Shown here piece after piece: positions 41,393 through 64,000 of a stretch of 64,000 nucleotides of DNA. A program made the position numbers and the translations under genes. The first letter of the stretch is position 1, and each line of letters starts with the position of its first letter. Below the pieces are notes generated by a model, which was given only the letters and a program-made list of their open reading frames with translations, made no database searches and was not told the DNA's origin. Location: assembly GCA_019058445.1 (NCBI GenBank), contig JAHPZA010000003.1:32001-96000 (forward strand), read 5' to 3'. Source of the stretch: Promethearchaeota archaeon (lineage in GTDB: Archaea > Asgardarchaeota > Lokiarchaeia > Sigyniarchaeales > SOKP01).

Positions 41393-41394
41393 AA

Positions 41395-44792: not shown

Positions 44793-44834
44793 GGTTACTA
44801 GTTTTTAAGTTAAAATTAAAGCCGAAACAGCAGA

Positions 44835-46268: not shown

Positions 46269-46333
46269 ATTTTAGAAAACCTCTTTGTTCTTTATTTTTT
46301 TTCTTAATATTTTGTCCCTTACTTTAATGATAT

Positions 46334-47299
46334 TTATATCCCTAAATTTGATGTTAAACACATAAAAAGTTCATCTAAACCCTCTCCTGTCAAAGCGGAA
46401 GTTTCAAAAAATTGAAAGTTATATCGGTCAGCAAATTTGTAGGCATTGCTTCTGATTTCTTCTCTATTCTCTACTTTATCAATTTTATTCCCTACAATTA
46501 TGTAAAGGATCGAAGAATTTTTGATGAAATGGCGGGCTTCTTCAATCCACTCGTTAATCATTCCTAATGTTTCTTGTTTAGAATAATCGAATACAATTAG
46601 AACTGCCTTTGAGTGGTTATAGAAATGCCTACGTATCTTTGCAAAACTTTTTTTGCCTCCTAAGTCAAACAGTGAAAATGTTATTTTCATATCTTTCAAA
46701 ATTTGAAGTTCTTTTTCAATTATTGAAAGACCTATAGTAGGTTTATATTGCTCAATAAATTCACCATTAACAAACATGTTTGCTATGGCACTTTTGCCCA
46801 CATTATCTGGTCCAATTAGTACAATCTTATTTATTGAATTTTTACTATTAGAATGGTTGTTGGATTCTAGTTCTACGTTTCCGCCATTAACAAGATTAGG
46901 AAGTTTCGTCGAAATTTTTCGATCATTTAGAATTTGTGATGCTTTTTCTGCCACAATGTATGAATACGGGATAAATTTGTCAATATCAGAGTAAGCATCT
47001 GCTACTAATACAAATAATGCTCTAGTTGGTCCAACATTTCCCAGTTCTAAATAGAACAAACGATAGTCATTAGTATCAAATGTACCACTGCCATAAGATG
47101 TATCGGCGAATCTTTTAATTTTATTAAGAGCCCCTTCAAGGATGCTCATAATCGCTCCAATAATCTCTTCATTAAAATTTTTTACTGATTGGCGAGCAAT
47201 AATTAATCCATCCAAATCTACAATTAACGTAGCAATTAATTCATCAACTTTTTTCAAAAAATTGGCTAACAATTCTTCTAATAGCGTGACGCGCAACAT
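46334..47299 (-). CDS. Roadblock (MglB-like) domain fused to a Rab-like small GTPase, inside the che cluster
   Basis: N-terminal LIATLIVDLDGLIIA...IIGAIMS. GTPase motifs GPDNVGKS, YKPTIG, FDLGGK, NKID, ETSA. Confidence 0.85.
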   Translation of the reverse strand: MLRVTLLEELLANFLKKVDELIATLIVDLDGLIIARQSVKNFNEEIIGAIMSILEGALNKIKRFADTSYGSGTFDTNDYRLFYLELGNVGPTRALFVLVADAYSDIDKFIPYSYIVAEKASQILNDRKISTKLPNLVNGGNVELESNNHSNSKNSINKIVLIGPDNVGKSAIANMFVNGEFIEQYKPTIGLSIIEKELQILKDMKITFSLFDLGGKKSFAKIRRHFYNHSKAVLIVFDYSKQETLGMINEWIEEARHFIKNSSILYIIVGNKIDKVENREEIRSNAYKFADRYNFQFFETSALTGEGLDELFMCLTSNLGI

Positions 47300-47428
47300 T
47301 TTTAATTTATTCTAACTTTAAGTTAGAGAATTTATACTCAAAATCTTAATATTTTAGCTATTTTTAAACTCAATGATAAACAAAAATTTTTATAGCGATA
47401 GAACAACAATAAATTCCTTTCAAATCTA

Positions 47429-48610
47429 TTAAGCTCTAGAAAATTTTGACGCATATCTTACTATATAATCCTTAATGTGGTAATTTGGACTTATTATTTC
47501 GGCAAAACCATATTTGGCTGCAAATTTTGGCATTCCGTAGAGAATAGCTGTTTCTTCAGATTCTGCAATTGTAACCCCTCCCGATTTTTGAATTGCCCCC
47601 AATCCTTGAACTCCATCCTTACCCATTCCAGTTAACAAAATACCTAAAGTATTTTTATTGAATGCTTTTGCTGCCGAATAGAATAACACATCAATAGAAG
47701 GTTTACAAAAATTAACCGGTTCCCCATTAAAGATTCTGATTGTTGGAGATCTTAAGTTCCTATTTTTTACCATAATTTCCATGTGTTTGTCCCCTGGAGC
47801 AATATAAATATATCCAGATTTAATTATTTCACCATTATTTGGAATTTTTACTTTTAACTTGCACAAATCATTCATTGATTCAGCAAATTGATTCATAAAA
47901 AAGAGATTTAGATGTTGTACAATGAATATAGATCCTGGAAAATTTGAGGGAATTCCCTTCAAGATTGATTTTAAGGTTTTGGGACCACCTACACTGGATC
48001 CCATGACTATGATGCATGGTACCTCAGATCCACTCTTAACTTGCGGGATTTTAGATGCTTTTTCTTGAACAACTACTTTTAAATCATGATGATTTGTGAT
48101 TTTAATAGGGACTATTTTCTCTGAATTTAATTTTTTCTCTAAAATTTCTTTTTTAACCTTAATTTCTGAAGCTAAAAGCACTTTATTTATTAACTGCGTT
48201 TTAAATTTAGGAAATTCCTCTTTCCATACTCCAGTAGGTTTAATAATATAATCAAAAGCTCCCAATAGGAGGGTTTGAATCGAATCATTTAATGTTTTTG
48301 ACGCTTCAGAGGGATTGAGAGCAGAAAAAACGATTGTTGGCACGGGATAATGCTTTGAAAGATATCGATATAACGTAATTCCATCCATTTTAGGCATAAT
48401 TAGATCTAAAAGCAAAACATCTGGATTTGTTTTTTCAATTTTTTCGATGGCTTCTTCTCCATTTCTTGCGATATCAACTACTTCGATTTGAGGGTGTTCC
48501 GAAAGCATATCTGATAATATTTTTCTCTGATAAGAAGAGTCTTCTGCTATGAGGACTTTGACCTTCTTATGTGAACTATCCTCAGTTTTCATGTTCTTGA
48601 GAGCACTCAT
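47429..48610 (-). CDS. cheB: Chemotaxis methylesterase CheB (second copy)
   Basis: REC domain AEDS..LDLIMP..KP; GSSVGGP, VQHL, TGMGKDG; YGMP. Confidence 0.93.
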   Translation of the reverse strand: MSALKNMKTEDSSHKKVKVLIAEDSSYQRKILSDMLSEHPQIEVVDIARNGEEAIEKIEKTNPDVLLLDLIMPKMDGITLYRYLSKHYPVPTIVFSALNPSEASKTLNDSIQTLLLGAFDYIIKPTGVWKEEFPKFKTQLINKVLLASEIKVKKEILEKKLNSEKIVPIKITNHHDLKVVVQEKASKIPQVKSGSEVPCIIVMGSSVGGPKTLKSILKGIPSNFPGSIFIVQHLNLFFMNQFAESMNDLCKLKVKIPNNGEIIKSGYIYIAPGDKHMEIMVKNRNLRSPTIRIFNGEPVNFCKPSIDVLFYSAAKAFNKNTLGILLTGMGKDGVQGLGAIQKSGGVTIAESEETAILYGMPKFAAKYGFAEIISPNYHIKDYIVRYASKFSRA

Positions 48611-48677
48611 AAATGATTCTACTTTAGTCCTTTGAATACCTTAAAATTGATTAAAATAAATAGTTTTAAAACTATTT

Positions 48678-49067
48678 CTAGGCTTTGGCCATAGTGTGCC
48701 TTGTTAGAATTTGTTCCACTTGGTCCTTCTTGAAGGGTTTACGAATAAAATCCTTTGCGCCTAGTTGAGTCGCTTCAAGTATTAAATCCTGTTGGCCAAT
48801 TGCAGACACTACAATAATTGATGCTGTTTTATCAAAGTTTAGAATACCTTTAATGGCATCTAGTCCTCCTAGCTGTGGCATGATAAGATCCATAGTAACC
48901 AAATCTGGCTTTAATTTTTTATATAGTTCAATTGCTTCATTTCCATTTTTCGCTTCTGCAATGACTTCAGCAAAATTAGTGCCGTTTATAATGTTCTTAA
49001 GCATGGCTCTAGTGAATCCAGCATCATCAACAATTAATACCTTTTTTTTGTGATTCTCTTTAGACAT
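48678..49067 (-). CDS. cheY: Chemotaxis response regulator CheY
   Basis: Single REC domain: IVDDAGFTR, VTMDLIMP, VSAIGQ, FIRKPF. Confidence 0.92.
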   Translation of the reverse strand: MSKENHKKKVLIVDDAGFTRAMLKNIINGTNFAEVIAEAKNGNEAIELYKKLKPDLVTMDLIMPQLGGLDAIKGILNFDKTASIIVVSAIGQQDLILEATQLGAKDFIRKPFKKDQVEQILTRHTMAKA

Positions 49068-49159
49068 GTTAACATTCCCCTAATTTTTCATAAAATTTAT
49101 GATAGGTTAATTTGAAAAATTTTCGTACTTTTTGTGAGTTTAACTAAGACGTACTTTTA

Positions 49160-49256
49160 TATAATTTTGATAAAGTAAGTATTTAAAAAATTAATGAAAT
49201 GCAAAATAGTTGCCCAGAATAACACAAAAAATTTGAAAAAAATTTGATTTAAATAT
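49160..49256 (-). promoter_or_regulatory. Duplicated promoter, copy 1 (upstream of cheY-cheB-GTPase-cheB)
   Basis: 34-bp exact match TTGATAAAGTAAGTATTTAAAAAATTAATGAAAT (49167-49200) to 61019-61052, with similarity over ~100 bp. Contains a minus-strand TATA box TTTAAATA. Confidence 0.8.
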
Positions 49257-49313
49257 TAATTCTATTTTGGATTTTGAGAGTTTAAGATCAGTAATCTTAT
49301 CTAAATTACTTAT

Positions 49314-49964
49314 CTATTTAATTTTAAGAAGGTCAAATATTATTTTAATAGTATCTATACTTGGAATAAAACAAATTATCCCATCTATACTTAATTCTTC
49401 AATTTTTATATTTGTGTTAATTATTATTATAGAATCTGTGAGCTCTGAATAATTTGCAGCCACTGAATTACATATTGCGCCAATTGAATCTAAAGCTAAA
49501 ACAGGAACATTAGGAATTAGTTTGATGCCCATTAAATTTGCTAATGAGCTTGCATAATGTCCCGCTAATATATTGCCGATTTCAGAAATGATACTCCTCG
49601 TCAAATCATCTAATTCCTCGATTTCGTGTATATCATCAATAGATATCTCAGAAATCGAATTGATCATGTTAATCATGGATTCTTTAGTAAAGATTTGTAG
49701 TACAGTTAAGTTATGCTTTCCTGTTATATTTGAACAAATTCCAAAGATATTAGTTTCTTGATCGGGAAAAATATTATTTAACTCCCAAAAAGGAATGATT
49801 TTAATGCCAGTTAAAGAAACTTCAACTCGCTTATTAACAAGTTCTGATAACGCAACAACAGCATTACCGGACCCAATATTTCCTAATTCTTTTAACGAAT
49901 CTAACTGCTCAGGACTCAATTTTATTGAGTTATTTACCCCTTCAAGACCTTCATTTAATTTCAT
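49314..49964 (-). CDS. cheC: CheY-P phosphatase CheC
   Basis: Two active-site motifs, DSLKELGNIGSGNA and SIISEIGNILAGHY. Confidence 0.92.
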   Translation of the reverse strand: MKLNEGLEGVNNSIKLSPEQLDSLKELGNIGSGNAVVALSELVNKRVEVSLTGIKIIPFWELNNIFPDQETNIFGICSNITGKHNLTVLQIFTKESMINMINSISEISIDDIHEIEELDDLTRSIISEIGNILAGHYASSLANLMGIKLIPNVPVLALDSIGAICNSVAANYSELTDSIIIINTNIKIEELSIDGIICFIPSIDTIKIIFDLLKIK

Positions 49965-49984
49965 ATTCTTTAAACCTCTAAATT

Positions 49985-50530
49985 TTAATTAATTTTTTTA
50001 GTAATTGTATCTTTGCTTGTTTTTATTTGGATTATATCATCGCCTATATTATATATGATTGTTCTCCCTTTTTTTCCTCCAACTTCCTCAAATAGAATTT
50101 TAATATTTAATGAGCTTAATACTTCTCTTGCGATTTTAATATTTTGCTTACCGATACAGTTAAATTCATTATCAAAAATAGTTGCACCTCCAATCATAAC
50201 TGCTTTTAAATTCTTTAATTTTGCTCCGCTCTGTATCATTTTGTCCACTAAATCTTTTATAGAAGTATTTACAAATTTATGAGGTAATTTTATCTGGGAA
50301 GCTTCTTTATTTTCAGAGGTCGGAAGTAAGACATGGGACATAGCATGTATATGATTTATCGAATCTGTTAACAGAATTGCGATACATGAGCCCAATCCAT
50401 ATATAGAAATCGTTTTGTAGTTTTTATATTTCTTACTCGAGTTTACTAATGCATAATGTGCGATGGGTAAAAAAATCTCTCCGTTTTGATTAGGTTTGAT
50501 TATGCGATCAATTCGTTCTTCATAAACCAT
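49985..50530 (-). CDS. cheD: Chemoreceptor glutamine deamidase CheD
   Basis: GLGSCIAI, SHVLLP, KF, MIGGA, IGKQN, EEVGGKKGRTI. Confidence 0.92.
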   Translation of the reverse strand: MVYEERIDRIIKPNQNGEIFLPIAHYALVNSSKKYKNYKTISIYGLGSCIAILLTDSINHIHAMSHVLLPTSENKEASQIKLPHKFVNTSIKDLVDKMIQSGAKLKNLKAVMIGGATIFDNEFNCIGKQNIKIAREVLSSLNIKILFEEVGGKKGRTIIYNIGDDIIQIKTSKDTITKKIN

Positions 50531-50544
50531 AATGAATTAACTTT

Positions 50545-51444
50545 TTAACTTTTAATATAAAAATGATTCCTTCCATCAAGTAACTTGAGATTGAGATTGG
50601 AATTTAAAAGAGTTTCAGTTTTTCCAAGGACCAATAATCCGCCATTCGTTAATTTATCTTTTAAAATCTTTAATAGTTTCTCTCTAAAACCTCTATTTAT
50701 ATATATCAATAAATATCTACAAAAAATAACATCATACTTTTGAGATCTTTGATGTCCCTTTGTGACATCCTCTATGATAAAATCTACTTTTTTTTTAATA
50801 TCATTGCAAATTAAATATTTGGGTCCTAATCGATCATGAAATTTAGTAAAATATGCTAATTTATATCTCTCAGGAGTTTCTTTTAAAGCCTCTTCACTAT
50901 AGAATCCCATTCGTGCCATTTTAATAATATTACTATCAACATCAGAAGCAACTAGATCATAGGTAGGAAAATCATTGATTTCTTCCCTTAATTGCTCAAG
51001 CATCATAGCTAGAGAATAAGGTTCCTCGCCTGAGGCACATGCACATGACCAAATTTTCAACCCCTCCTCTTTATAAGCATAATCTCTGCGAATTTTGTCA
51101 TAAATAGAAAGCTTAGAGACATCAATATTATCAGAATAATTTTGAAATTTTCCATTTTTACAAGCAAGAATAATCTGACGAAGTTTTTCATAAATTTCGA
51201 TGTTTCTAAAGAAATAAGTATAATTTATAGTAAACCTGTCCAAAAACAATTCAATTTCTTGGGGATTTGATGAAATATAATCAAGATAACTTTGGTCGGT
51301 TGTCAAACCGACTCGAATCATTCGAGCTTTAATCCTTCTTTCAAGAAAATTCCTTCGATAACATTCAAACTCTATACCGGTTGAATCTTTCAATTTTTCT
51401 ATCAAATTGTTGATGGATTTAGGGTTAAATGCTATACTTTCCAT
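50545..51444 (-). CDS. cheR: Chemotaxis methyltransferase CheR
   Basis: RRIKARM, TINYTYFFRN, IWSCACASGEEPYSLAM, ASDVD, DVIFCRYLLIY, LGKTE. Confidence 0.94.
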   Translation of the reverse strand: MESIAFNPKSINNLIEKLKDSTGIEFECYRRNFLERRIKARMIRVGLTTDQSYLDYISSNPQEIELFLDRFTINYTYFFRNIEIYEKLRQIILACKNGKFQNYSDNIDVSKLSIYDKIRRDYAYKEEGLKIWSCACASGEEPYSLAMMLEQLREEINDFPTYDLVASDVDSNIIKMARMGFYSEEALKETPERYKLAYFTKFHDRLGPKYLICNDIKKKVDFIIEDVTKGHQRSQKYDVIFCRYLLIYINRGFREKLLKILKDKLTNGGLLVLGKTETLLNSNLNLKLLDGRNHFYIKS

Positions 51445-51467
51445 TGAATTCTCTTCCTTTAAGAATT

Positions 51468-52037
51468 TTAAAGATTTTTCAATAACTCCTCGAGTTGGCT
51501 AATCCTTTTATCTATATGTTGAATTGAATATTTCACATGAGAATGAATTTCTTTAATTTCATTTACGATATGTGAAATTTTAATATGAACACTTCTGTTT
51601 ATTTGGGGTTTTAAAGTGCTCATAGCTTTTGATTGTTGAACTTGAAGTAATTGAGAACCTAAATTATTTGAAGCGGTTGTTTTTGCGATCTGAGCTGAGT
51701 TGTTTTTTTGTCTAGATTCGCCAGGAAAACCATATCTTTCAGGACCTCTCTTGATTTCGCTTGATATATATTGAAATTCAATAGGTTCTCTTCCCTCTTT
51801 TATAACCTCATATTTAAAACCATTAAATTCTTTATTATTTTTGAGTTTGCCTGCCCAATTTGCGGCAATATATCTATGAAATAAACGAGATTGTAACCCT
51901 GCCCAAATCCAAATTAAATTTAATGGTTTATCTACAAACAAATATACACTATTAGTTTCAAAGAGCTTATCGGGATTTTTTGTGAGATTTTCACCGTTGA
52001 TTTTATATACATAATTAAAGTATTCGTTTTGTTGCAT
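51468..52037 (-). CDS. Gelsolin-like domain protein with a C-terminal coiled coil, inside the che operon
   Basis: FETNSVYLFVD...LIWIWAG..S....RYIA...A..L.......YEVIKEGREPIEF matches the gelsolin/villin repeat consensus. A Q/S/N-rich linker and the heptad tail IDKRISQLEELLKNL follow. Confidence 0.75.
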   Translation of the reverse strand: MQQNEYFNYVYKINGENLTKNPDKLFETNSVYLFVDKPLNLIWIWAGLQSRLFHRYIAANWAGKLKNNKEFNGFKYEVIKEGREPIEFQYISSEIKRGPERYGFPGESRQKNNSAQIAKTTASNNLGSQLLQVQQSKAMSTLKPQINRSVHIKISHIVNEIKEIHSHVKYSIQHIDKRISQLEELLKNL

Positions 52038-52114
52038 ATCCCTTAGCCATTTTGATATTTTTTGTAAAAATTTGGATTATGTGGGAATTAAAAAAATATT
52101 CCCCATGTTTTTTT

Positions 52115-54025
52115 TTAAACTTCGTAAAATGTGGAGAGTGTATCTAATAATTCTTGTAAAGTCTCGAGTTCTGGAATAAAGAGAAAAGTGCCCTGAATCT
52201 CAAATTCTTTAATAATAACATTTGTAGTGATTACTAAAGAAAGTTCTTTCATCAATCCAATTTCTTCATTTAGGATTTTAAACAATTTCATGCCGGTATC
52301 TAAACTTATGTCCGGCGGCTCAGTCATCAATCTTATACTTAATAAATTCCCTAAAGCTGTAGTATAATGACTGGCTAATATATGACCGAGTTCTTTCATT
52401 GCATCAATATAAATTTCAGGAAAATCATTGATAGATTTCACGCTTCTTAAATCTATTTTTGCTTTTCCGTTATCACCTATTATGATAGAAGTCAAATTAG
52501 TGATGTCTGGTACTTTAAATAAAGTTAGAACTGTTGCTCTGGTTTTTCCTTGAACTCCACTCCAGGAGACAAATAATTTCATATTTTTCTTGCTCATTTT
52601 TTTGGCAAACTGATCAATAGAAACGACCTCTACTGAGGGAATATTGATATCTACTCGCTTATTTATCATTTTTGCTAAGGCGTTAGCAGCATTACCAGCA
52701 CCAATGTTTCCAACTTCTCTTAAAGCATCTTTCTGAATATCTGTAAGTTCTAAGTCAATGAATTTATCGAGCGCTCCTCCCGGTTTAACAGGTTCAACCT
52801 TATCATAGATATCTAATTTATTGAATAGACTTTTTATAGCTTTTAAGTCTGGTATATAGAAAAAGATACCATTCATCTGTAAATCAGTAACTTTAATTGC
52901 TGTTTTTATAATTACCACATATTCAGATTGCTCTTGAAGCTCTTTAGCTAAGAAATTTCCTAAATTGCCCGCATTGCTCATAGCAAATTCAGGAACATCA
53001 AAAATCATTTTTGTATTTAATAAATCTGCTAATGCTGAAGCATAATGTCCCGCGAGAATATTTCCAAATTCCGTGACTGTAGAAATAGCAAAATCATCTA
53101 AATCTTTTTTAGTTTTTACTTTATCCGGATTAATCTTTGACTTTTTGCCCGCTAGATCTGCTATTAATTTCATTAATGGAGTTAATTCAAACACTTGAAG
53201 TATTGTAGATAATGAAGGCTTTCTTATATGCGAAAATATTCCACAGACAACTTCTGACTCATTACCAAATTGACGAGGTAACTGTTCTAGAGAAATAATA
53301 CCAACATCCGTAAGATCTACATCTATTCGTTTATTTATTAATCTTGAAAGAGCTGTGACTGCATTTCCACTTCCAATGTTCCCTACCTCCTGTAGTGTAT
53401 CTTTTTGCATTTTGGTAAGCTTCACTATATCGTGAACTATCGGCTGATGTGGTTTATCACTTGAAGGGATTATAATATCTTCAGTTCTTATTCTAGCAGG
53501 AAGCTTTTCTGGGATATAACGCTCTGGTAATTGATTGATATCTTGAGAATTTCTCATTAATTGTTGATCAGGAGCTAATGGAACTATTAATGACTCAAGA
53601 TCTAAAACAACATATGTTTCCTCATCTAAGACTCCTACAGATCTAATGTATTTCATATCAATTTCAGTCTTGATAATCGCAGATTTATTCTGAAAAATTG
53701 AAATTGGGACTTCTCTCATGCTAATAACTGAATCCACATAGAGTGCAATATTAATATCCTGTAATTCTAATAAAACTAAGCGAGTATTTTTTGATAACTT
53801 TAAATGATCTCCATTTGAGTGAATCCTTTGTCCCATGGCTATTATTGTATAAATCTCCCCTCTAACATCAGCAATTCCCACAATTGATCTTTCTGCTAAA
53901 GGGATTGGAATAATTAATTCTGGAACATAAATTTCTCTTACATCTGTTATTTCAAGAAAATATATTCGATCATCTACATTAATTTCTACTAATTTTATTG
54001 TTTGTACATATTCGTTTTCTAACAT
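52115..54025 (-). CDS. CheW-CheC-CheC fusion protein
   Basis: N-terminal CheW (VREI..P..IIPIP....IVGIADVRGEI, ALYVDSV, VVLDL), then two CheC domains (DTLQEVGNIGSGNA / TEFGNILAGHY and DALREVGNIGAGNA / KELGHILASHY). Confidence 0.88.
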   Translation of the reverse strand: MLENEYVQTIKLVEINVDDRIYFLEITDVREIYVPELIIPIPLAERSIVGIADVRGEIYTIIAMGQRIHSNGDHLKLSKNTRLVLLELQDINIALYVDSVISMREVPISIFQNKSAIIKTEIDMKYIRSVGVLDEETYVVLDLESLIVPLAPDQQLMRNSQDINQLPERYIPEKLPARIRTEDIIIPSSDKPHQPIVHDIVKLTKMQKDTLQEVGNIGSGNAVTALSRLINKRIDVDLTDVGIISLEQLPRQFGNESEVVCGIFSHIRKPSLSTILQVFELTPLMKLIADLAGKKSKINPDKVKTKKDLDDFAISTVTEFGNILAGHYASALADLLNTKMIFDVPEFAMSNAGNLGNFLAKELQEQSEYVVIIKTAIKVTDLQMNGIFFYIPDLKAIKSLFNKLDIYDKVEPVKPGGALDKFIDLELTDIQKDALREVGNIGAGNAANALAKMINKRVDINIPSVEVVSIDQFAKKMSKKNMKLFVSWSGVQGKTRATVLTLFKVPDITNLTSIIIGDNGKAKIDLRSVKSINDFPEIYIDAMKELGHILASHYTTALGNLLSIRLMTEPPDISLDTGMKLFKILNEEIGLMKELSLVITTNVIIKEFEIQGTFLFIPELETLQELLDTLSTFYEV

Positions 54026-54050
54026 AGTAAATACTCTACCTCTTTAATTT

Positions 54051-54887
54051 TCAAATGTCATTTTTAATGATAATTCCTTTCCAAATGAGTTCTTTTTCCC
54101 TTTCTTCTTTAGAATGTTCAGAAAAAAAATCGGGTTGTTTAAATATTGAAATTTGACCCCCATTCGAGAATTCATACACATAATCTAGCATATCATCCAT
54201 ACTTGTGAAGTTAAAGCCTGCTATGCTCAATTCGGAATTGTTAACTATTAATAAATCCTCACTATTGAATAGGGTATATTCATCGTTAATTTCTAACCAT
54301 AATTCAGGAATTATCTCTTTTTTATCAATTGTAATTATATCATCCAGGGGTATATCCCGATACGTTTTATTTGTAGCAAAAATTATCTGGTCTGGAATAG
54401 TTTTAAGGAGTTTAGCAGTTTTATTAATCCCCTCTATTGCTTGAGTATATTTTTGTGAATCGAAGACATCATAGCACAAAACAAAAATAACTCCGCCTCC
54501 ATCTAATTTAGCTATTAAATCTACCACGTTTTCTGCATCTGAAGTTGGATTAATTTGTATATTCTCTACAAAAATATCACGAATATACTTAAAATATTGA
54601 TAAAATCTCCATTTCACTGCAGATTTATCATTTATCTCTCGACTAATGAAAGTCTGATAGAGATTTTGTAACTGCTTCTCTGATAGTTTTGAATAATCAG
54701 CGCTCGTGTCATAGTCATCCCCAATATTAACAAATTCATTTGATTTATTTGATTTTGATTTTTTCGCAACTTCATCTACATAAATCTTAAGTTCCTCTAT
54801 AGTAAATCCAGGCGCAATATATTCTACTAAATAAAGCAATCTCTTTTTGGATTTATCCTGTAATAAATCATAATATTGTATTGTCAT
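54051..54887 (-). CDS. Hypothetical cytoplasmic protein in the che operon
   Basis: 278-aa ORF with a GGAG ribosome-binding site and 25-31 bp gaps to its neighbours. No family recognised. Confidence 0.7.
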   Translation of the reverse strand: MTIQYYDLLQDKSKKRLLYLVEYIAPGFTIEELKIYVDEVAKKSKSNKSNEFVNIGDDYDTSADYSKLSEKQLQNLYQTFISREINDKSAVKWRFYQYFKYIRDIFVENIQINPTSDAENVVDLIAKLDGGGVIFVLCYDVFDSQKYTQAIEGINKTAKLLKTIPDQIIFATNKTYRDIPLDDIITIDKKEIIPELWLEINDEYTLFNSEDLLIVNNSELSIAGFNFTSMDDMLDYVYEFSNGGQISIFKQPDFFSEHSKEEREKELIWKGIIIKNDI

Positions 54888-54918
54888 TTTTTTTCTCCTT
54901 TATTTATTTAATATACAT

Positions 54919-56940
54919 TTAACCAAAGAAATATGATTCTAAATCAGAAATACTCATTTTTTCTTCTCCTTTATTTTTCAGATAGTACATAATTTCTTTT
55001 TCTTGATATGCTAACACATTTTTAATAGAGAATGAGATTATATACTCATTTTCTTCTTTAGATTTTGAAACTTTATTTTCGGTATTTGAAGATACTAATT
55101 CAAAGGTATCTGGTATTGTGTCTGTTATTAATACATCCTTTATTTCCACATTCGAATTATTTCTCATTGTAATACTTATCGCAAATTCATCTGCATCACG
55201 TCCAGGAAAGATTTCTTTTCCAATTGTCAGATTACGACGCTTATGTGTGACCTTTATCTTAGGTTTTTTCATGTCTGATAAGATATTTTTCACTACATAA
55301 TATTCAGGTATTTCGATTTCTGCCAGATTCTTGTTTTTTATATAATAACAGCTGACTTCTAACGGAAATTCATATGCTTTATTATAATCTGGAGTCATTG
55401 CCCGAATTGGATATGTCAGTTCTAATTGTCCATTTATCCCTATTAAATCCCTTATTTGATTATTCGTTAAATTTATAATTAATTCTAAAGCATGTTCCTT
55501 AGATGGATCATCATCTTGAGGTGTAATTTTGAGGGTAATATCATCTATTTTCATGTCTCCTGAAGAGTTTTTAAGCTTAATTTGTGCAAGATCAATAGGA
55601 GGCTTAAAATCTTCTGGAATTGTCTCATTAATTATAATACCTTTAATAGGAACAATGCCCGTATTATGAATAATAATTTTATTAAATAATTCTGATTCTT
55701 CAAATGACTTGATTTCTTTTTGAGAGATATCTTTTTCAAAATAAAATCCTATCACTTCAATTGTTGTATCTTCCACTTGTAAGCTTACATTAGTGTTTCT
55801 CTCAATAGCATAATCCAATGAATAAGTTAGCTTTCTTGAAAATTTAGGTTCATTCTCCTCATGAAGTTCCCATTTATTAGTATTAAATGTTTCACCAGGT
55901 CGTAAAATAACTTTATTTCCTTCCTTAGTCATATCTAAATCTACATATTTTGTAGATCTCGTTTTATCGGTAATTAAAACGTTTTTCAATTGCATAGTAA
56001 AATCACTATGATTCGCAAAGATAAATGAGCATTCCCATTGATTTGGTTCTGTTTCTTTCTCTTCCACATCTATGACATGCTTTGCGTGGGAATATGCTGA
56101 GAATTCTTTAATATCAGTTTCTGAGACAATATAATTTTCTAATTCATATGTCATAGTAATAATCCCCGTCCTAATCTGCTTATTTTTTTCTGGAATTATT
56201 TTAGCTATAATAATTACCTGTCTCTGTTCTCCAGGTTTTAATTCTCCTAAATTCCAAGATAATTTATTGTTTTTAATTTTTATATCTGCTTTCGAGTCGC
56301 TTGAACATTCTAAATCATAAAAATCCTTAGGAATTTCTTTTTCAGCATGAATATTTTTAATGATATAATTTGATTGATTATGTAAATCAATTAAAAATTT
56401 AACTGTATTTTCTTGACCAAATAACAAAATATATCGATCATCTTGACCAATCATAGGAATTTCTGTAAAATCCTTTACTGCTTTTATATCCTTATTAAGA
56501 ATCTCTATTGATTCATAAATCTTAAGAGGATCTGATAGATCATCTAAACTACTAATGTTGTATCTAATATTCTTATTAGTTTGTGGTTCAAATATCCCAA
56601 GACTCAACTCATTTTGAATATCTAAATTGGTATATTGAGAGCCTAAGATTTGAATGCGAGTATCCCACATTCGATCTTTATATGAATTATTTATTATTGA
56701 TACATTGCCATAGCCATTAGCAGATTTTCTTTGCATAGTATGATCATACTGAAATTCTAAAGTTTCCTCATTAACTATTGTAATTTCAGATATACTTTCT
56801 GCTGTTTTTGAAATTTGAACCTCATTTGTTTCATATTTTCCTAAGTGCTTTGTTTCTTCCATAAATTTGAGAGGTACTCCCAAAAAATTTGGACCGATTT
56901 TGGTCCTTAATTCAGTTTGATTAATGCATTTAAATCCCAT
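54919..56940 (-). CDS. Multi-beta-sandwich (DUF11/Ig-like repeat) protein with no signal peptide or TM helix
   Basis: Recurring motifs: IDLHNQSNYIIKNIHAEKEIP..F, IIIHNTGIVPIKGIIINETIP..F, ITMRNNSNVEIKDVLITDTIP..F, and SWNLGELKPGE. Confidence 0.65.
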   Translation of the reverse strand: MGFKCINQTELRTKIGPNFLGVPLKFMEETKHLGKYETNEVQISKTAESISEITIVNEETLEFQYDHTMQRKSANGYGNVSIINNSYKDRMWDTRIQILGSQYTNLDIQNELSLGIFEPQTNKNIRYNISSLDDLSDPLKIYESIEILNKDIKAVKDFTEIPMIGQDDRYILLFGQENTVKFLIDLHNQSNYIIKNIHAEKEIPKDFYDLECSSDSKADIKIKNNKLSWNLGELKPGEQRQVIIIAKIIPEKNKQIRTGIITMTYELENYIVSETDIKEFSAYSHAKHVIDVEEKETEPNQWECSFIFANHSDFTMQLKNVLITDKTRSTKYVDLDMTKEGNKVILRPGETFNTNKWELHEENEPKFSRKLTYSLDYAIERNTNVSLQVEDTTIEVIGFYFEKDISQKEIKSFEESELFNKIIIHNTGIVPIKGIIINETIPEDFKPPIDLAQIKLKNSSGDMKIDDITLKITPQDDDPSKEHALELIINLTNNQIRDLIGINGQLELTYPIRAMTPDYNKAYEFPLEVSCYYIKNKNLAEIEIPEYYVVKNILSDMKKPKIKVTHKRRNLTIGKEIFPGRDADEFAISITMRNNSNVEIKDVLITDTIPDTFELVSSNTENKVSKSKEENEYIISFSIKNVLAYQEKEIMYYLKNKGEEKMSISDLESYFFG

Positions 56941-56998
56941 GTTTATTTTGCTCCATTTGATTTATCTTTTATTTTTTATTACATATTTTTGACTAATT

Positions 56999-59089
56999 TT
57001 AATAAATATCATTTAATTGTGAGTATTGCAATTCGTTTAATTTAGAGTTTATAATATTAAAAACATCAAGTATTAAACAAATAGAACCGTCGCTCAGGAT
57101 TGTTGAGCCTGAAATATAGTTGGTAATAGAATATTCTGATTGAAATGGTTTCACCACCGCATCAATTTGTTCAAGAAGCTCATCTGCAATTAATATTGCT
57201 GATGAATTCTCATCTTTCTGACATAAAACTGCCAATTTAGTGTGTGAATTTTTCTTTACTTTACCATTACTATTTAGTTTCAAAAGTTTATCCAATTTAA
57301 TTATGGGTAGAAGACTTGAGTTGATTTTATAATATTTTGACTCTCCAACATACTCCAGAGAATCGGGACTATAAAAATAAATTTGTTTTATGTTTTCCGT
57401 AGGAATCGCGAAGATATCACCTGCGATTTTTAATAATTGTGCCTTAATAATTGCCCTACTAAAGGGTACAATTACTGAGAATTTCGTTCCGATTCCTTTT
57501 TCTGTGAAAATTTGAAAAGAACCTCCAAGTTTTTTAACCTTTTCATCAACAATAGCTAAACCCATTCCTCGTCCAGAGATCATATCTGCATCCGTAAGGG
57601 TTGAAAAGCCAGGCATCAAAAGAAATTTATTCAAAACTTCATTTGAAAGAAGTTCTACCTCGTTGGGAGTGTAATATCCCTTAGCAATGATATTTTCTCT
57701 TATTTTATCATAATTAATCCCTTTTCCATCATCAGAGATTTCAATATAGATTAATCCTGCTCTTCGATATGTCTTTAGTTTTAAGACTCCTGTTTCATTC
57801 TTATTTTTAGAAATCCTTTCTTTTGGTGATTCAATTCCATGATAAATTGCATTTCTAAGAAGATGGACTAATGGTGAATTAAGTTCTTCTAAAATTTTTC
57901 TGTCCATCTCCACATTAATGCCTTCTAGGATGAATTTTATTTTTTTACCTGTTTCTACCGCAACATCACGTACCAATCTTTTATATTTCCTAAAAGTTGA
58001 TTCTACTCTGACAAGTTTTAAGTCAAAAATGATTTCTTGAATATCAAGGAGGGATTTATCAATATTATCAAAAAGGATACTTATCTCCTGATCTTGTCTC
58101 TCCTTGAGTATTTGACTAATTTGATTTTTAATTATGATTAATTCTCCAAAGTAATCCATTAATTTTTCCAATGTATCAATATCAACTTTTATTCTTGAAA
58201 TTGTCGCTCTTTCATTCTGGAAATTGTCTATTATCTTAGACACCGGTTCAATTTCTCCATCAATGATTTCTTCTTCGTAAGTGTTTTCTTTTTCACTTTC
58301 CAGGCTACTTTCAAATGTGTTCTCATCCTGCATCTTTATACTAAAGTTAGTCAGAAGAGCTTCAAATTTGTCATGATTTAACTCTGTTATAACTTTATTA
58401 TCAATTTCAAGGATTTCTTCCAAAATTTGAGAAATTTGGGCTGAATTTTTTTGAGTAATATAGTAAATTTCAAAATCTCTATCAAAATTTCCAATTTCTA
58501 ATAATCGAGGTTCAGGATTACTATAACAAATTTGACCAACTTCATTGAGCGCTCTAAAAATAATAAATAAGCGTACTTTTTTAAATACACAAGTGGCCTG
58601 TAATCTGAGATATATCTTATAATATTTATTATTTTTAACGCTTAGTGTTTGTTTAATTTTATCCTGAGGAATTGGTTTAATAAAGGTAATTTCATATTCA
58701 TTCTCGAAATCATCAAAGGTATCTTTAATTTCGTCTAAAAATTTAACATCAATATCAGTATTATCCCCTTTTTTAAGTCTGCTCACTACTGTTCGAAGAA
58801 CATCAAGACTTTCAAAAAAGATTGAAGTAAATTTACTGATTTTTTCGGTTGAAACTTTATTATCTTTAGCCTTGTTCAAAAAATCTTCTAAAAAATGGCA
58901 GAATTTTGAAACGTTTTCAAAACCTGCCATGGCAGTCAATCCTTTTAAAGTATGGAATGCGAAAAAAAGTTCTTGAACTGGTTTTTTATTGCGAGGATTT
59001 TCTTCTAGCTTGAGAACTTCATCTTCTACTTTTTGGATAAGATCTTCGGATTCATTTATAAAAAGCTGAATATCTTCTTTAGATGCCAT
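56999..59089 (-). CDS. cheA: Chemotaxis histidine kinase CheA
   Basis: Hpt FHTLKG, a P2 domain, dimerization IKVDIDTLEKLMDYFGELII, HATPase HLLRNA.HGIE / DDGKGI / PGFST / SGRGMGL, and a C-terminal CheW-like P5. Confidence 0.95.
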   Translation of the reverse strand: MASKEDIQLFINESEDLIQKVEDEVLKLEENPRNKKPVQELFFAFHTLKGLTAMAGFENVSKFCHFLEDFLNKAKDNKVSTEKISKFTSIFFESLDVLRTVVSRLKKGDNTDIDVKFLDEIKDTFDDFENEYEITFIKPIPQDKIKQTLSVKNNKYYKIYLRLQATCVFKKVRLFIIFRALNEVGQICYSNPEPRLLEIGNFDRDFEIYYITQKNSAQISQILEEILEIDNKVITELNHDKFEALLTNFSIKMQDENTFESSLESEKENTYEEEIIDGEIEPVSKIIDNFQNERATISRIKVDIDTLEKLMDYFGELIIIKNQISQILKERQDQEISILFDNIDKSLLDIQEIIFDLKLVRVESTFRKYKRLVRDVAVETGKKIKFILEGINVEMDRKILEELNSPLVHLLRNAIYHGIESPKERISKNKNETGVLKLKTYRRAGLIYIEISDDGKGINYDKIRENIIAKGYYTPNEVELLSNEVLNKFLLMPGFSTLTDADMISGRGMGLAIVDEKVKKLGGSFQIFTEKGIGTKFSVIVPFSRAIIKAQLLKIAGDIFAIPTENIKQIYFYSPDSLEYVGESKYYKINSSLLPIIKLDKLLKLNSNGKVKKNSHTKLAVLCQKDENSSAILIADELLEQIDAVVKPFQSEYSITNYISGSTILSDGSICLILDVFNIINSKLNELQYSQLNDIY

Positions 59090-59121
59090 ATAATCCCCTT
59101 TATCATTCTTTTTCCATATAT

Positions 59122-59511
59122 TTATTTCTTATCTTTAATTTTTAGAATACGCTCCATAACTTCTACAATCTGTTCAGTTTTGAAAGGCTTTTGAATAAAA
59201 TCTTTAGCTCCTTTTTTTGCCGCTTCAAGTACTAAAGCTTCTTGACCTAAAGCAGATACAACCACGATGATCGCCTTTGGATCAACCTTTAAAAGATCTT
59301 CAATAGTTTCAATGCCTCCCTTTTCAGGCATTACAAGATCCATCGTGACCATATCTGGTTTTAATTTTTTGTATAGGGCAATCGCTTCTTTTCCATTTTT
59401 CGCTTCACCGACGACTTCACCGTAATTAGTTTTTGAAATTATATTCTTCAGAATATTTCGTGTAAATTGGGCGTCATCAACTACCAATATTTTACTTTTA
59501 TTATTTGACAT
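59122..59511 (-). CDS. cheY: Chemotaxis response regulator CheY
   Basis: VVDDAQFTR, VTMDLVMP, VSALGQ, FIQKPF. Confidence 0.92.
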   Translation of the reverse strand: MSNNKSKILVVDDAQFTRNILKNIISKTNYGEVVGEAKNGKEAIALYKKLKPDMVTMDLVMPEKGGIETIEDLLKVDPKAIIVVVSALGQEALVLEAAKKGAKDFIQKPFKTEQIVEVMERILKIKDKK

Positions 59512-59538
59512 TTTTCTAACTCCTATTTTTGGTTAATA

Positions 59539-60063
59539 TTATTTTGTTATTGTTTGTTCTTTTTCTATAATGGTTTGTTCTACTTCAGTTAATATTCTAC
59601 TCAAATCGAGTAAAATTCTAGGTCTATCTTTAAACTTTATAATTCCTTTGATATATTCAATTCCAACACTAGTTTGGAATATTGGACTTAAACCTTCAAC
59701 TAAATCAATATCAATATTGGCTATATCCAAAATACGATCAACTAAAAATCCTGTGTTCACATTATTAACACTAACAATGATGATGTATTTTTTCTCTGAA
59801 CTATATTTTTCTTCATTTTTCTTAGAATCTTGTATTCTATATTCGTTCAGATTTAATTTCTTGCTCAAATTTACAATATGTATAATTTCTCCTCTGTAAT
59901 TATAAATTCCATCAATAAAATCATAACTTTGAGGCAATTTTCTAATTTGGCCTGCCAATATTATTTCTTTAGTATCATAAATATTAATAGCAAATTGTTC
60001 GCCTTCTGTTTCAAATAAAATAACTGAAAGCTTATTTCCTTGAGTATAATATTCTTCTTGCAT
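59539..60063 (-). CDS. cheW: Chemotaxis coupling protein CheW
   Basis: FAINI..TKEII, LPQSYDFIDGIYNYRGEII, GFLVDRI, YIKGI, ILLDL. Confidence 0.9.
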   Translation of the reverse strand: MQEEYYTQGNKLSVILFETEGEQFAINIYDTKEIILAGQIRKLPQSYDFIDGIYNYRGEIIHIVNLSKKLNLNEYRIQDSKKNEEKYSSEKKYIIIVSVNNVNTGFLVDRILDIANIDIDLVEGLSPIFQTSVGIEYIKGIIKFKDRPRILLDLSRILTEVEQTIIEKEQTITK

Positions 60064-60121
60064 ATTTTTTTCTCCTAATCTTTTTTTTACGCATTACAAA
60101 CTTTTTTTTATCTAAATTTTC

Positions 60122-60949
60122 TTACAAATTAAAATATCTGTTAATATTTTTCTCAAATTCGTAAAATGCCGTAATATCTCCATTAAAATTTTCAAGATGG
60201 GTTTTATATTTCTCCAGAAATTCATCAGCCATAAGATACATATATCTTTTAATAAGCGGAGTTATCTTTTCAACTAAGAAAGCAAAAATTACATTTTTCT
60301 TAGTAATCGTGTAAAATAGCTGATTTCCGAAATTTATCTCTTTTAATTTCCCCCCTGTCTCTTTACCGATGACAAATTGTGAAAATGAAAAAAGTGCTGA
60401 AATAAAACCTCCTATTTGAACTTCTCCATCAATAATGTCAGTCCGTTTTCCCATAATTTTTGTAAAAAGTGGACATCCAGCAGTATCAATAATAAAAATA
60501 CCAATTATTCCCTCTATTACAGGTATTTCGATTGAGTTTTTAATAGTATTCTTAATCTCATCGATAGTATGATTATCAGTACAATATTTAATAATACTCT
60601 TAGAGTGTAAATATAATTCAGAATATTGGAGAGTACTTTCTTTTTCATAAAGATAAATTAGAATTAGTTTCTCTAACTCTTTTTTATTCTTGAAAAAGTT
60701 AAGAAATACAGAGAAATCATCTAAAGGAATAATGGAATTTCCACTATCTTTTTTGATTATTTCCATCTTGAAAAGATGTAATATATTTTGTATCATGGGC
60801 ATTCCAATACCAATTTGGTAAAGTACTTCAGAACTAAAATCTTCTGACTCAATGTTTTTGAAAGTAATTTTGATCAAACCAATGCCTAGCACTTCCAACA
60901 TTCTTGGATTATTAACACGTCTGTCCATGCTTATCATCGAGACTACCAA
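60122..60949 (-). CDS. Longin-domain protein, first gene of the che operon
   Basis: The C-terminal half has a longin pattern (GIFIIDTAGCPLF...IGGFISALFSFSQFV...LKEINFGN...IFAFLV...EFLEKY...FNGDITAF..F). The exact start is uncertain. Confidence 0.72.
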   Translation of the reverse strand: MVVSMISMDRRVNNPRMLEVLGIGLIKITFKNIESEDFSSEVLYQIGIGMPMIQNILHLFKMEIIKKDSGNSIIPLDDFSVFLNFFKNKKELEKLILIYLYEKESTLQYSELYLHSKSIIKYCTDNHTIDEIKNTIKNSIEIPVIEGIIGIFIIDTAGCPLFTKIMGKRTDIIDGEVQIGGFISALFSFSQFVIGKETGGKLKEINFGNQLFYTITKKNVIFAFLVEKITPLIKRYMYLMADEFLEKYKTHLENFNGDITAFYEFEKNINRYFNL

Positions 60950-61011
60950 ATTAGCTTTCTATAAATATATCCCCTAAATATACAATAATTCATTTATTGA
61001 TACTTATATTT

Positions 61012-61108
61012 TATAATCTTGATAAAGTAAGTATTTAAAAAATTAATGAAATACAAAATATTACGCTTTAACGATACAAAAAACTCTGAAAAAAAATAAT
61101 TTAAATAT
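61012..61108 (-). promoter_or_regulatory. Duplicated promoter, copy 2 (upstream of longin-cheW-cheY-cheA...cheC)
   Basis: Exact 34-bp match (61019-61052) to 49167-49200; minus-strand TTTAAATA. Confidence 0.8.
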
Positions 61109-61162
61109 AAAACGTTTTCAATAGGATTTTAAAAATTTGAGAGACACGACAAAATAATGATT

Positions 61163-61681
61163 TTATTTCAATTCTTCCTCAAATACTTGAAAATCAGAAG
61201 AAGTGAATAAACAAAAAATTACTTCTTTAATCTGAGTATCTTTTGATAAATACTCTTTAGCGGTTGCAATCATTATTTTTGCACATCTCTCAATAGGATA
61301 CCCAAAAATCCCTGTAGAAATTGCTGGAAATGCAATCGATTTTAGCTCATGTTCATCCATTAATTTTAGACTATTTAGAGTGGCATTTTTCAATTTTTCA
61401 TCTTCATTCCCTTCCCCCATCCGTGGCCCTACCGCATGAATAACATGTTTCGCTTTTAATTCTCCCCCTGTAGTAATCACTGCTCCTCCAACAAATGTAG
61501 GGGATTTCTTATTACATTCTTCTTGAATTTTAGGGCCGCCTTTCCGGCGAATTGCTCCGGCTACACCGCCCCCCAAGATTAATTGCGCATTAGCCGCATT
61601 GACAATAGCATCAGTAGCCAATTCAGTAATATCTCCTTGGACCAACTTAATTTTTGAACTTTTTATTATTAATTCTTTCAT
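61163..61681 (-). CDS. Macro domain protein (ADP-ribose-binding / O-acetyl-ADP-ribose deacetylase, YmdB-like)
   Basis: QGDIT, DAIVNAAN, GGGVAGAI, VIHAVGP, AFPAISTGIFGYP. Confidence 0.95.
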   Translation of the reverse strand: MKELIIKSSKIKLVQGDITELATDAIVNAANAQLILGGGVAGAIRRKGGPKIQEECNKKSPTFVGGAVITTGGELKAKHVIHAVGPRMGEGNEDEKLKNATLNSLKLMDEHELKSIAFPAISTGIFGYPIERCAKIMIATAKEYLSKDTQIKEVIFCLFTSSDFQVFEEELK

Positions 61682-61829
61682 ATTAAAACCTTAAATATTA
61701 TCAATTTCAAATATATTTACTAGTATCTGGTATAATAGTATATAATAACAGTTTAAGTAACCATAATAATAATATATTTTCTAAGATAATCATTTCATAT
61801 TATAAGCTTATATTTGAAGGCGGGAATTA

Positions 61830-63035
61830 ATGAGCATACATTTTCGTAAAAAAGAAGCATCGATTGTCTTATTTTTATTCTTAAGCTTATTTGTTTCACT
61901 CCTTCTCATCAATACAGAGATTTCTGGGGCTAATTCCGAAAAGAATGAAGCGATAAATGAGAATAATAATAGAGAATCTCATCTCGAAGAATCCGGATTC
62001 TGGAATCTTACCGAATCTCCCATAGTTATTGATGATTATCAACCCAATTGTAATTGGAAAAAAACCGCCTCTAAGCATGAGTGGTGTTTTGGTAGTGGGA
62101 CTTTGGATGATCCTTACATTATAGAAAATGTTATTATAAATGGACAGGAGTCTACAAGTTGTATTACTATTAGAAATTCTAATGTGTATTTTATTATTAG
62201 GAATTGTATTCTCTATAATTCTGGTTGGTCCTTATTTAACTGGGACTCCGGGATTAAATTAATTAATACAAATAACGGGAACATATTAAATAACAACTGT
62301 TCATATAATAATGGTTTTGGGATTCTACAAATTGGATGTTCTAATAACAATTTTTCTGGAAACATTGTAAATCATAATTCTCATCATGGAATTTATAGCT
62401 GGAGTATCGATAAAATCAATATTTTTGAAAATGAAATTAATTATAACCAAATAACTGGGATATATTTTTGGTTTAGTTATAAAAACAACATTTCGGATAA
62501 CATCATAAATTCCAATCAAAATGGAATATACTTAATTATGAGTAGTAATAACTTTATCACGTCCAATTATTTAGTCGATAATAATGTGAGTATATATCAA
62601 TTCTGGTCTGGGGGGAATTTTATTAGTGAAAATAAATATGAATATGACCTGCCACCTCCTGCAATACCTGATGAGAACGCTAAAATAGATGGTGATGACA
62701 ATGATGACGATGACGACGATACTGAAGAAATTGAAGCTAAAGAGATCCCCTATATTAGTTTAATATTAATTGGTACTTCTATAGGATTTGTAAGCGGAGG
62801 AATTATTGGTTACCTCATTCAAAAAAAAAGAATCGAAAAAAAAAGCCTTTTTCTATTCAGTAAACCCATGAAAGAAAAATCTAAAGCGGAATCATCTTTA
62901 AATTTAGAGGAGAAGGTTGTTCCTGAACCAGAGTTAGAATTTGTACCAAAAGGAGCAATTATGAAATTTGGAGATATGAAAAAATTGATTGAGGAACAAG
63001 AAGATTTGAAAAAAAATGAAAATGAAAAAAAATAA
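61830..63035 (+). CDS. Membrane-anchored cell-surface protein with a NosD/pectin-lyase-like parallel beta-helix
   Basis: N-terminal signal-like helix, GSGTLDDPYIIEN, repeated GIxLxxSxNNxIxxNxxxxN, an acidic linker, a TM helix and a cytoplasmic tail. Confidence 0.82.
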   Translation: MSIHFRKKEASIVLFLFLSLFVSLLLINTEISGANSEKNEAINENNNRESHLEESGFWNLTESPIVIDDYQPNCNWKKTASKHEWCFGSGTLDDPYIIENVIINGQESTSCITIRNSNVYFIIRNCILYNSGWSLFNWDSGIKLINTNNGNILNNNCSYNNGFGILQIGCSNNNFSGNIVNHNSHHGIYSWSIDKINIFENEINYNQITGIYFWFSYKNNISDNIINSNQNGIYLIMSSNNFITSNYLVDNNVSIYQFWSGGNFISENKYEYDLPPPAIPDENAKIDGDDNDDDDDDTEEIEAKEIPYISLILIGTSIGFVSGGIIGYLIQKKRIEKKSLFLFSKPMKEKSKAESSLNLEEKVVPEPELEFVPKGAIMKFGDMKKLIEEQEDLKKNENEKK

Positions 63036-63055
63036 TAATATCAATAAAAGAAAAA

Positions 63056-63790: not shown

Positions 63791-63941
63791 TTAGTTTTTT
63801 TGGATATTTTCTAATGAGTAGATTTATTAAAAATTCAAAATTAATCCTAGAAAAAAAATTTTATCTTTATCTATGATAAATGATTTAACATTATATCCAA
63901 ATAATAGATAAATTACAATAGACATGGAGTTTGTATATAAT

Positions 63942-64000
63942 ATGACATTTGAATCAGATTTCCAAATAATTAAAAATCTTACTGAAATTCAAGCGTGCTC
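63942..64000 (+). CDS. 5' end of a gene running off the window (possibly an M42-family peptidase)
   Basis: The open frame MTFESDFQIIKNLTEIQAC(S) resembles the M42 N-terminus (LKxLxExxGxSG). Only ~19 codons are visible. Confidence 0.35.
   Translation, partial: MTFESDFQIIKNLTEIQAC

Follow-up and report, generated by a model that had tools for sequence, protein, structure and literature searches.

Two Copies of a Putative Terminator-Promoter Cassette Ahead of Adjacent che Units in an Asgard Archaeon

A cluster of chemosensory (che) genes in a Promethearchaeota archaeon is divided into two units, and nearly the same non-coding sequence of about 150 nucleotides (nt) stands ahead of each. The cluster lies in a stretch of 64,000 nt, here called the window (G000:C3:32001-96000; positions given are those of the window), taken from a source genome, G000, of 4.6 Mb and 31% GC that is 92.6% complete. 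An original prediction read the repeat as a duplicated promoter that co-regulates both units and could lead to further members of a che regulon. The locus raises the questions of what the repeated element is, how it came to be so uniform, and whether it marks anything beyond these two units. The analysis suggests that it is probably a duplicated terminator-promoter cassette that supplies the two units with the same core promoter and perhaps with an operator as well. It defines a set of two putative promoters, not a wider regulon.

The Repeated Element and Its Genomic Setting

The two copies and the units they precede are:

49140-49287, minus strand: copy A, non-coding element, in the 246-nt gap from CheC (stop 49314) to CheY_A (ATG 49067)
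60993-61142, minus strand: copy B, non-coding element, in the gap from a Macro-domain gene (stop 61163) to p275 (ATG 60937)
49314-60937, minus strand: unit B, comprising p275 (tandem longin/roadblock-like), CheW, CheY_B, CheA, a DUF11 protein, p278, a CheW-CheC fusion, p189, CheR, CheD and CheC
44835-49067, minus strand: unit A, comprising CheY_A, CheB, a Roadblock-Ras GTPase fusion and a 477-aa REC-CheB-like protein

Every che gene is encoded on the minus strand; read in the direction of transcription, the cluster runs from the Macro-domain gene through gap B with copy B, unit B (11 genes) and gap A with copy A to unit A (four genes). Gap B (213-225 nt) and gap A (246 nt) are the only large gaps in the cluster, the others being about 20-130 nt. 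Each copy starts 20-27 nt past the stop codon of the upstream gene. As originally described, both copies have the same orientation and each lies upstream of the first gene of its unit, in the CheC/CheY_A and Macro/p275 gaps.

The reported 34-bp identical core was recovered by exact search (49167-49200 = 61019-61052), and blastn extended it to 49 nt with two mismatches. The weaker similarity said to reach about 100 bp was also seen, and goes further: ungapped extension aligned 49157-49259 with 61009-61111 (103 nt, 80%), and gapped blastn aligned 49140-49287 with 60993-61142 (152 nt, 75%, E 1.7e-24). The copies are direct repeats spaced 11,852 nt apart, and their match is far beyond chance. A perfect run of at least 34 has a probability of 0.0014 given 82 matches in 103 positions.

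The 34-mer, allowing up to 7 substitutions, had no site besides copies A and B in the 4.6-Mb genome, and a blastn-short search of the genome gave no third copy. An nhmmer profile built from four copies of the element found only the two che sites (E 1e-18 and 7e-18; next best E 0.94). Genome searches with the full and the core profile both lacked a third copy, the third-best match in either being at E 0.94 or worse. A weak third match at 40824-40851 (repeat family D6) was treated as an AT-rich chance similarity, and was absent among the top 25 nhmmer matches listed. The copy number is two in G000 and two in G003, a metagenome-assembled genome of the same genus, and the copies are in che gaps every time. 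The element does not show the many copies in unrelated contexts expected of a dispersed repeat or miniature mobile element; the outcome that the original prediction had named as contrary to it, a common dispersed repeat, was checked for, and only two sites occur in the genome.

Among the 2,739 intergenic regions of G000 there are 36 two-member repeat pairs at E <1e-8, and 19 of them, the che pair included, have non-homologous flanking genes. Promoter-sized intergenic copies are uncommon in this genome, yet not exceptional, and the che pair stands out in preceding two adjacent units that belong to a single signalling system. Example pairs are C6:610809-612314 with C6:613952-614518 (318 nt, 85%) and C3:156235-156530 with C3:242038-242443 (227 nt, 80%). 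The 18 further pairs with non-homologous flanks could be copied promoters, small RNAs or unannotated small genes.

Architecture of the Element

Read 5′ to 3′ on the gene strand, each copy has a TAT(T/A)TAAA box followed by two oligo-T tracts, then some 20 variable bases, the 21-mer ATTTCATTAATTTTTTAAATA and a well-conserved 22-nt spacer. The parts, and the leaders predicted to follow them, are:

49248-49255, no strand assigned: distal TATA-like box of copy A, TTTAAATA on the + strand and TATTTAAA on the gene strand; the box cited in the original prediction
61100-61107, no strand assigned: distal TATA-like box of copy B, TTTAAATA on the + strand
49226-49242, minus strand: oligo-T tracts T6 and T7 of copy A, 72-88 nt past the CheC stop; candidate terminator of the upstream unit
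61078-61096, minus strand: oligo-T tracts T6 and T8 of copy B, 67-85 nt past the Macro stop
49180-49200, minus strand: invariant 21-mer ATTTCATTAATTTTTTAAATA of copy A, its last 8 nt (49180-49187) being the TATA box TTTAAATA; identical in six copies from four genomes or contigs
61032-61052, minus strand: invariant 21-mer of copy B with its TATA box (61032-61039); identical in six copies
49154-49179, minus strand: TATA-to-start spacer of copy A; start predicted near 49157 from the box position and the end of paralog homology
61006-61031, minus strand: TATA-to-start spacer of copy B; start predicted near 61009 on the same basis
49068-49153, minus strand: predicted leader of about 90 nt, unit A; no relation to leader B, 74% identity to the G003 ortholog, and TTAGGGGA 8 nt ahead of the ATG
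60938-61005, minus strand: predicted leader of about 72 nt, unit B; 84% identical to its G003 ortholog, with TTAGGGGA about 35 nt before the ATG

The TATA box of the 34-nt core (49180-49187 and 61032-61039) reads TTTAAATA on the gene strand. On this strand, that of the downstream genes, it conforms to TTTAWATA, and it is invariant in six copies. The original prediction had also pointed to TTTAAATA in both copies, and the sequence is present as cited (49248-49255 and 61100-61107), but that box belongs to the + strand, which is antisense to the genes, and lies at the distal end of the element. This distal TAT(T/A)TAAA is retained in six of six copies, and the oligo-T tracts end in TTTTTTGT, which is invariant in all copies. 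Directly upstream of the TATA box the sequence is CATTAATTT, and the + strand also has a purine-rich flank. The spacer, C(T/C)TACTTTATCAA(G/A)ATTATA, holds an imperfect dyad, TTTAT(C/A)A-N3-TTATA(A/T)A, which is a candidate operator. Similarity between the paralogous copies ends at 49157/61009, 23 nt past the TATA box, an edge that coincides with the expected transcription start. Beyond it, leaders A and B are 42-50% identical, compared with 74-84% between ortholog leaders.

For comparison, box statistics were gathered across the genome using crude calls of open reading frames (ORFs); aragorn yielded too few reliable tRNAs, most of them with introns, for a tRNA-based consensus. Sense TTTAWATA boxes are over-represented between about 50 and 110 nt ahead of start codons, tailing off to -140, and a weak T/A step occurs 22-23 nt past them. 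The che boxes, at -120 (unit A) and -102 (unit B) relative to the start codons, are within the usual range, on its long side. Generic boxes show a weak preference for A, at -3 to -5 only. An alternative TATA-like sequence nearer the CheY_A start was not retained in G003. Genome-wide, the 40 nt that follow stop codons show a 2-3 fold enrichment of runs of T6 or longer, and the T-tracts of the element are at 67-88 nt.

A minor feature of the leaders is TTAGGGGA, found at 49076-49083 and 60970-60977 and in both G003 leaders, though leaders A and B are otherwise unrelated. This octamer is rare, with 15 instances across 731 kb of upstream sequence, and unlike the usual ribosome-binding motif GGAGGTGA.

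Conservation, Age and Gene Conversion

In G003, both copies are at orthologous positions. A scan for the invariant 21-mer in 185,579 species genomes from public collections found no other Asgard genome with it, and gave two metagenome contigs, L146 and L185, that carry genuine A-type copies upstream of CheY_A. Coding DNA of G000 and G003 is 73-90% identical, and intergenic DNA 56-94%. The useful signal is the rate heterogeneity inside the element: in four unbiased copies, 39 of 50 columns are invariant in the core compared with 23 of 58 in the distal part (Fisher P 8e-5), and the TATA block (a 22-mer) has 21 of 22 columns invariant (P 3e-6).

Three other genera (G014, G015 and G023) share the p275-CheW-CheY-CheA cluster, but the 300 nt preceding p275 are single-copy in their genomes, so the duplication is young and confined to the lineage of G000 and G003 and the two metagenome relatives. 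The CheB or Roadblock-Ras (RbRas) genes of these genera are arranged differently, and an independent comparison of promoter sharing is limited to the present lineage, the second unit being organised differently in other genera. More distant orthologous upstream regions were too diverged to align for footprinting. CheY_A and CheY_B are 61% identical, and CheY_B is 68-83% identical to its orthologs in other genera. A single segmental duplication of promoter plus cheY was rejected, since the identity of CheY_A to CheY_B is below that of CheY_B to its orthologs.

In a six-way alignment, two spacer sites separate the A-type copies (G003, L146 and L185) from the B-type copies, and at each of these copy A of G000 shows the B state. 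The two G000 copies also share a G, seen in no other copy, immediately upstream of the invariant block. Over the distal part, A copies are 53% alike, and an A copy is 62-71% identical to the B copy of its own genome. The pattern is that of a gene-conversion signature. The perfect identity over 34 nt, which the original prediction had noted, is in part a conversion tract of about 34-45 nt in G000, lying over a block that is invariant everywhere.

The contig L146 (SMTZ1_10002871, 2553-4932) has an unusual arrangement. Its Macro gene is joined, 15 nt past the stop codon, to the final 64 nt of CheC. Downstream come a long A-type gap, the element, CheY_A and a hybrid in which CheB residues 1-101 are combined with CheB2 residues 440-477. 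It is without unit B and the Roadblock-GTPase, and represents either a naturally occurring variant with a che deletion or a chimera assembled across paralogous sequence. Recombination between element copies was rejected as its origin, the junction (Macro 3′ flank to CheC 3′ remnant) being about 800 nt upstream of the element.

The CheC/CheY_A gap is about 930 nt in L185 (Ga0209536_100196512, 724-1652) and L146 (3170-3790), versus 246 nt. In L146 the stretch upstream of the element includes a 206-aa ORF on the opposite strand, and G003 has an insertion of about 100 nt at the same place; this stretch is an insertion hotspot.

Proposed Mode of Action and Alternatives

The preferred explanation is that the cassette was copied in a recent ancestor common to G000 and a small number of close relatives, in an event distinct from the older duplication of cheY. 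Each copy would present first the conserved TAT(T/A)TAAA box and then two oligo-T tracts that probably end the upstream transcript. RNA polymerase would then start about 23 nt past the TATA box, so that the leader of the CheY_A unit would be about 90 nt long and that of the p275 unit about 72 nt. One and the same core promoter would drive the che core unit of 11 genes and the four-gene CheY-CheB-Roadblock-GTPase-CheB2 unit. The copies of the cassette would have stayed nearly identical since then through purifying selection on the TATA block and one or more gene-conversion events in G000. Co-regulation by a duplicated promoter, as originally proposed, is consistent with the gene-strand TATA box and the end of homology at the expected start and is the best reading of the repeat, but it would be a young arrangement of one lineage only.

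Any factor that recognises the TATA-to-start spacer, or the 13 nt preceding the TATA box, would affect both units. Both stretches are candidate activator or repressor sites, and either the ATTTCATTAAT flank or the TTTAT-N-ATAAA dyad is a candidate site for a dedicated regulator. A more specific proposal is that the invariant 21-mer and spacer form the binding site of a dedicated regulator that jointly switches on the che core and the CheY-CheB-Roadblock-GTPase module in an archaellum-less Asgard archaeon. This is offered tentatively and is rather doubtful; if true, copying of the promoter would be the step by which chemosensory signalling in this lineage was recently wired to a small-GTPase output module.

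Several points weigh against a promoter function. Promoter activity is inferred from sequence, and so are the transcription starts, the ending of upstream transcripts at the T-tracts and any regulator. At distances of 120 and 102 nt, the boxes fall on the long tail of the genome-wide distribution. TATA-like octamers are abundant at 31% GC, and the flanks of generic boxes carry almost no information for a B recognition element (BRE); this signal is too weak to orient the promoter, so the proposed orientation rests on the homology boundary and gene context. Part of the identity between the paralogous copies comes from gene conversion, not selection. Cross-species conservation alone is weak evidence, because G000 and G003 are close and perfect runs of 20-33 nt occur in their other gaps as well. 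There is an ascertainment bias too, two of the six copies having come from a search with the invariant 21-mer itself. Finally, the 18 further intergenic repeat pairs without paralogous flanking genes indicate that such copies arise fairly often.

If the element were a neutral relic, i.e., intergenic DNA copied by chance during a cluster rearrangement, then its similarity would reflect youth and conversion, it would play no part in regulation, and the real promoters would be elsewhere in the gaps. A young and lineage-specific duplication fits this, as do the conversion signature (B-type states in copy A of G000, and the private G common to the G000 copies), the distal parts of A copies being nearer to the B copy of their own genome than to one another, and the comparable intergenic-only repeat pairs elsewhere in the genome. 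It is an unlikely explanation, however, given that rates are strongly uneven (the 21-mer is unchanged in all copies, while the adjacent 20 nt or so have changed at about half of their sites in both G000 copies), that the homology edge falls at the expected start site, and that the alternative TATA-like sequence nearer the CheY_A start is lost in G003. A function mainly at the 3′ ends of the upstream genes, with the TTTTTTGT tracts and distal box serving termination or 3′-end processing of the CheC and Macro transcripts and the TATA-like core being incidental, would be in keeping with T-tracts that are invariant in all copies, with the genome-wide enrichment of T6+ runs after stop codons, and with an element that starts 20-27 nt past upstream stop codons; intergenic terminators are known to tune archaeal operons (PMC10665913). 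Such a role appears improbable, since the TATA block, 40-60 nt further downstream, is more conserved than the T-tracts, the genome-wide peak of T-runs is 0-40 nt past stops whereas these tracts are at 67-88 nt, and the upstream Macro and CheC genes are functionally unrelated.

The element might alternatively act at the RNA level, as a small RNA, as a + strand antisense promoter directed into the 3′ end of the upstream gene, or as a leader motif transcribed from the distal box. No match to Rfam covariance models was found at E up to 1 (window 44000-64000), RNAalifold gave no consensus structure for the element (-0.81 kcal/mol), a + strand transcript would run through the least conserved part of the element, and a gene-strand transcript from the distal box would start within the terminator-like T-tracts. 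Even with a quasi-palindromic core box, a purine-rich AAAGTAAG on the + strand just 5′ of TATTTAAA that could act as a BRE, and a distal box kept in six of six copies, an RNA-level role is improbable. The chance that the repeat is a small protein gene or the footprint of a mobile element is slighter than any of these. A 17-codon + strand ORF begins at the same ATG in both G000 copies, but in both G003 copies that ATG meets a stop after two codons, which effectively refutes a small protein gene. Against a mobile element, there are only two copies per genome; terminal inverted repeats and target duplications were not noticed, in an analysis that included no specific search for them.

The Proposed Regulon

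If the element were a regulatory sequence of the whole che system, then it might be expected upstream of the receptor genes. The original prediction regarded receptors as missing, but about 15 genes for methyl-accepting chemotaxis proteins (MCPs) are present on other contigs of G000. The same number has been reported for 'Ca. Lokiarchaeum ossiferum', in which chemoreceptor arrays have been seen (PMC9834061), and receptors are therefore not missing. The element is absent from the upstream regions of all 15 MCP genes, and none of its 14-mers is over-represented among them (4/15 at the highest, compared with 9-21% in the background). With no third copy and no enrichment upstream of MCP genes, the element is not a regulon-wide cis element, and the expectation that the motif would find further members did not hold; the genome scan with the 34-mer and profile that had been suggested for listing downstream genes returned only the two che sites. 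The element is not a regulon marker, and will not find receptors or cytoskeletal genes.

The repeat was also supposed to place the longin gene (60122-60949) and the Roadblock-GTPase independently in the che regulon. To this it adds little, synteny across genera being the stronger evidence. The gene order p275-CheW-CheY-CheA-DUF11-p278-CheW/CheC-p189 is kept in five other genomes (G014, G015, G023, G031 and G008), and the pair of RbRas and the 477-aa REC-CheB-like protein (CheB2) is kept in three other genera, suggesting a conserved module. For che membership of p275 and the Roadblock-GTPase, conserved synteny across genera is both stronger and older evidence than a young promoter copy. The element is too young to inform on the ancestral che-GTPase wiring, for which conserved gene order is better.

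The start of p275 is best placed at ATG 60937, which fits the MIxM N-terminus of its orthologs. The protein has no Pfam match at the sequence level. Its AlphaFold2 model, a confident one (predicted local distance difference test, pLDDT, 83.7), has two tandem beta-beta-alpha-beta-beta-beta-alpha domains, and Foldseek matched it to AP-2 sigma/mu, Fuzzy-Inturned, Mon1-Ccz1, TRAPP, LC7, LAMTOR and the Lokiarchaeal Roadblock-Longin protein 8yqg (E 2e-4 to 5e-3). The longin-like label holds at the fold level.

Comparison with Known Systems

In the bop regulon of Halobacterium, a common upstream activating sequence lies next to the TATA box. The che units resemble this in that functionally linked units carry the same sequence beside the TATA box. 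They differ in that the bop sequences are short motifs at several unlinked promoters, while here about 150 nt that include the core promoter were copied wholesale, only twice, 11.85 kb apart in one cluster and upstream of nothing else.

Archaeal activators bind just upstream of the BRE/TATA, and repressors over or after the promoter (PMC5512572). At the fla promoter of Methanococcus maripaludis, EarA sites are just upstream of the BRE (PMC5512572). The che element is similar in having TTTAAATA on the gene strand and in heading a multi-gene taxis operon, and conserved sequence is found directly upstream of the box (the activator position) and from box to start (the repressor position). Its conserved flank does not resemble a described binding site, however, and the host is an Asgard archaeon, in whose 92.6%-complete genome neither archaellin (PF01917) nor CheF (PF04283) was found.

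Poly(T) mediates archaeal transcription termination, and in the arl cluster of Pyrococcus furiosus, intergenic poly(T) terminators subdivide the motility operon, with expression renewed downstream (PMC10665913). The che cluster likewise has oligo-T tracts in a gap inside a long same-strand cluster with more genes downstream; here, unlike in P. furiosus, the tracts belong to a copied cassette that brings its own TATA box. The promoter in the comparison with M. maripaludis and the termination in that with P. furiosus are, on the che side, predictions from sequence.

Concerted evolution of short duplicated non-coding segments is also comparable, since copy A of G000 has B-type diagnostic states and a private substitution is common to the G000 copies. 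Here the tract is only about 34-45 nt inside a block that is invariant across genomes, and conversion and selection are not fully separable. A duplicated promoter under selection and concerted evolution is a known kind of feature, of which this would be a further instance. It provides a base-resolution record of a putative promoter copied within a cluster and then kept uniform by selection and gene conversion. The 50-nt core at two sites is also a short, concrete target for start mapping and regulator pull-down in a Lokiarchaeum-like Asgard archaeon, and one that matters, as this is a che system with no obvious motor output beside longin-like and Roadblock-GTPase genes.

Other Features of the Cluster and Its Surroundings

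The Roadblock-Ras GTPase fusion (46334-47299) directly precedes the REC-CheB-like gene (44835-46268), and this is also the case in G015, G023 and G031 (L051, L052 and L053). G014 and G008 have CheB without a preceding CheY_A gene. Upstream of the p275 orthologs of G010, G019 and G022 (L028, L029 and L030) there are 3-4 copies of a palindromic TTTTGTACA(C)AAA-like motif; at a similar place the element of G000 and G003 contains TTTTTTGTAT, which is invariant. The motif may be a conserved regulator site of the cluster family.

In G000, aragorn predicted only 23 tRNA genes, most with introns at unusual positions, along with doubtful selenocysteine (SeC), pyrrolysine (Pyl) and Stop calls; tRNA detection in this genome calls for an intron-aware archaeal tool. 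Elsewhere in the window, about 1 kb (40383-41394) between minus-strand ORFs of 192 and 244 aa has no ORF of at least 70 codons. In the crude gene calls it forms part of a 1785-nt gap (39610-41394), which aligns with G003 at 73% identity and 19% gaps and includes a perfect run of 26 nt.

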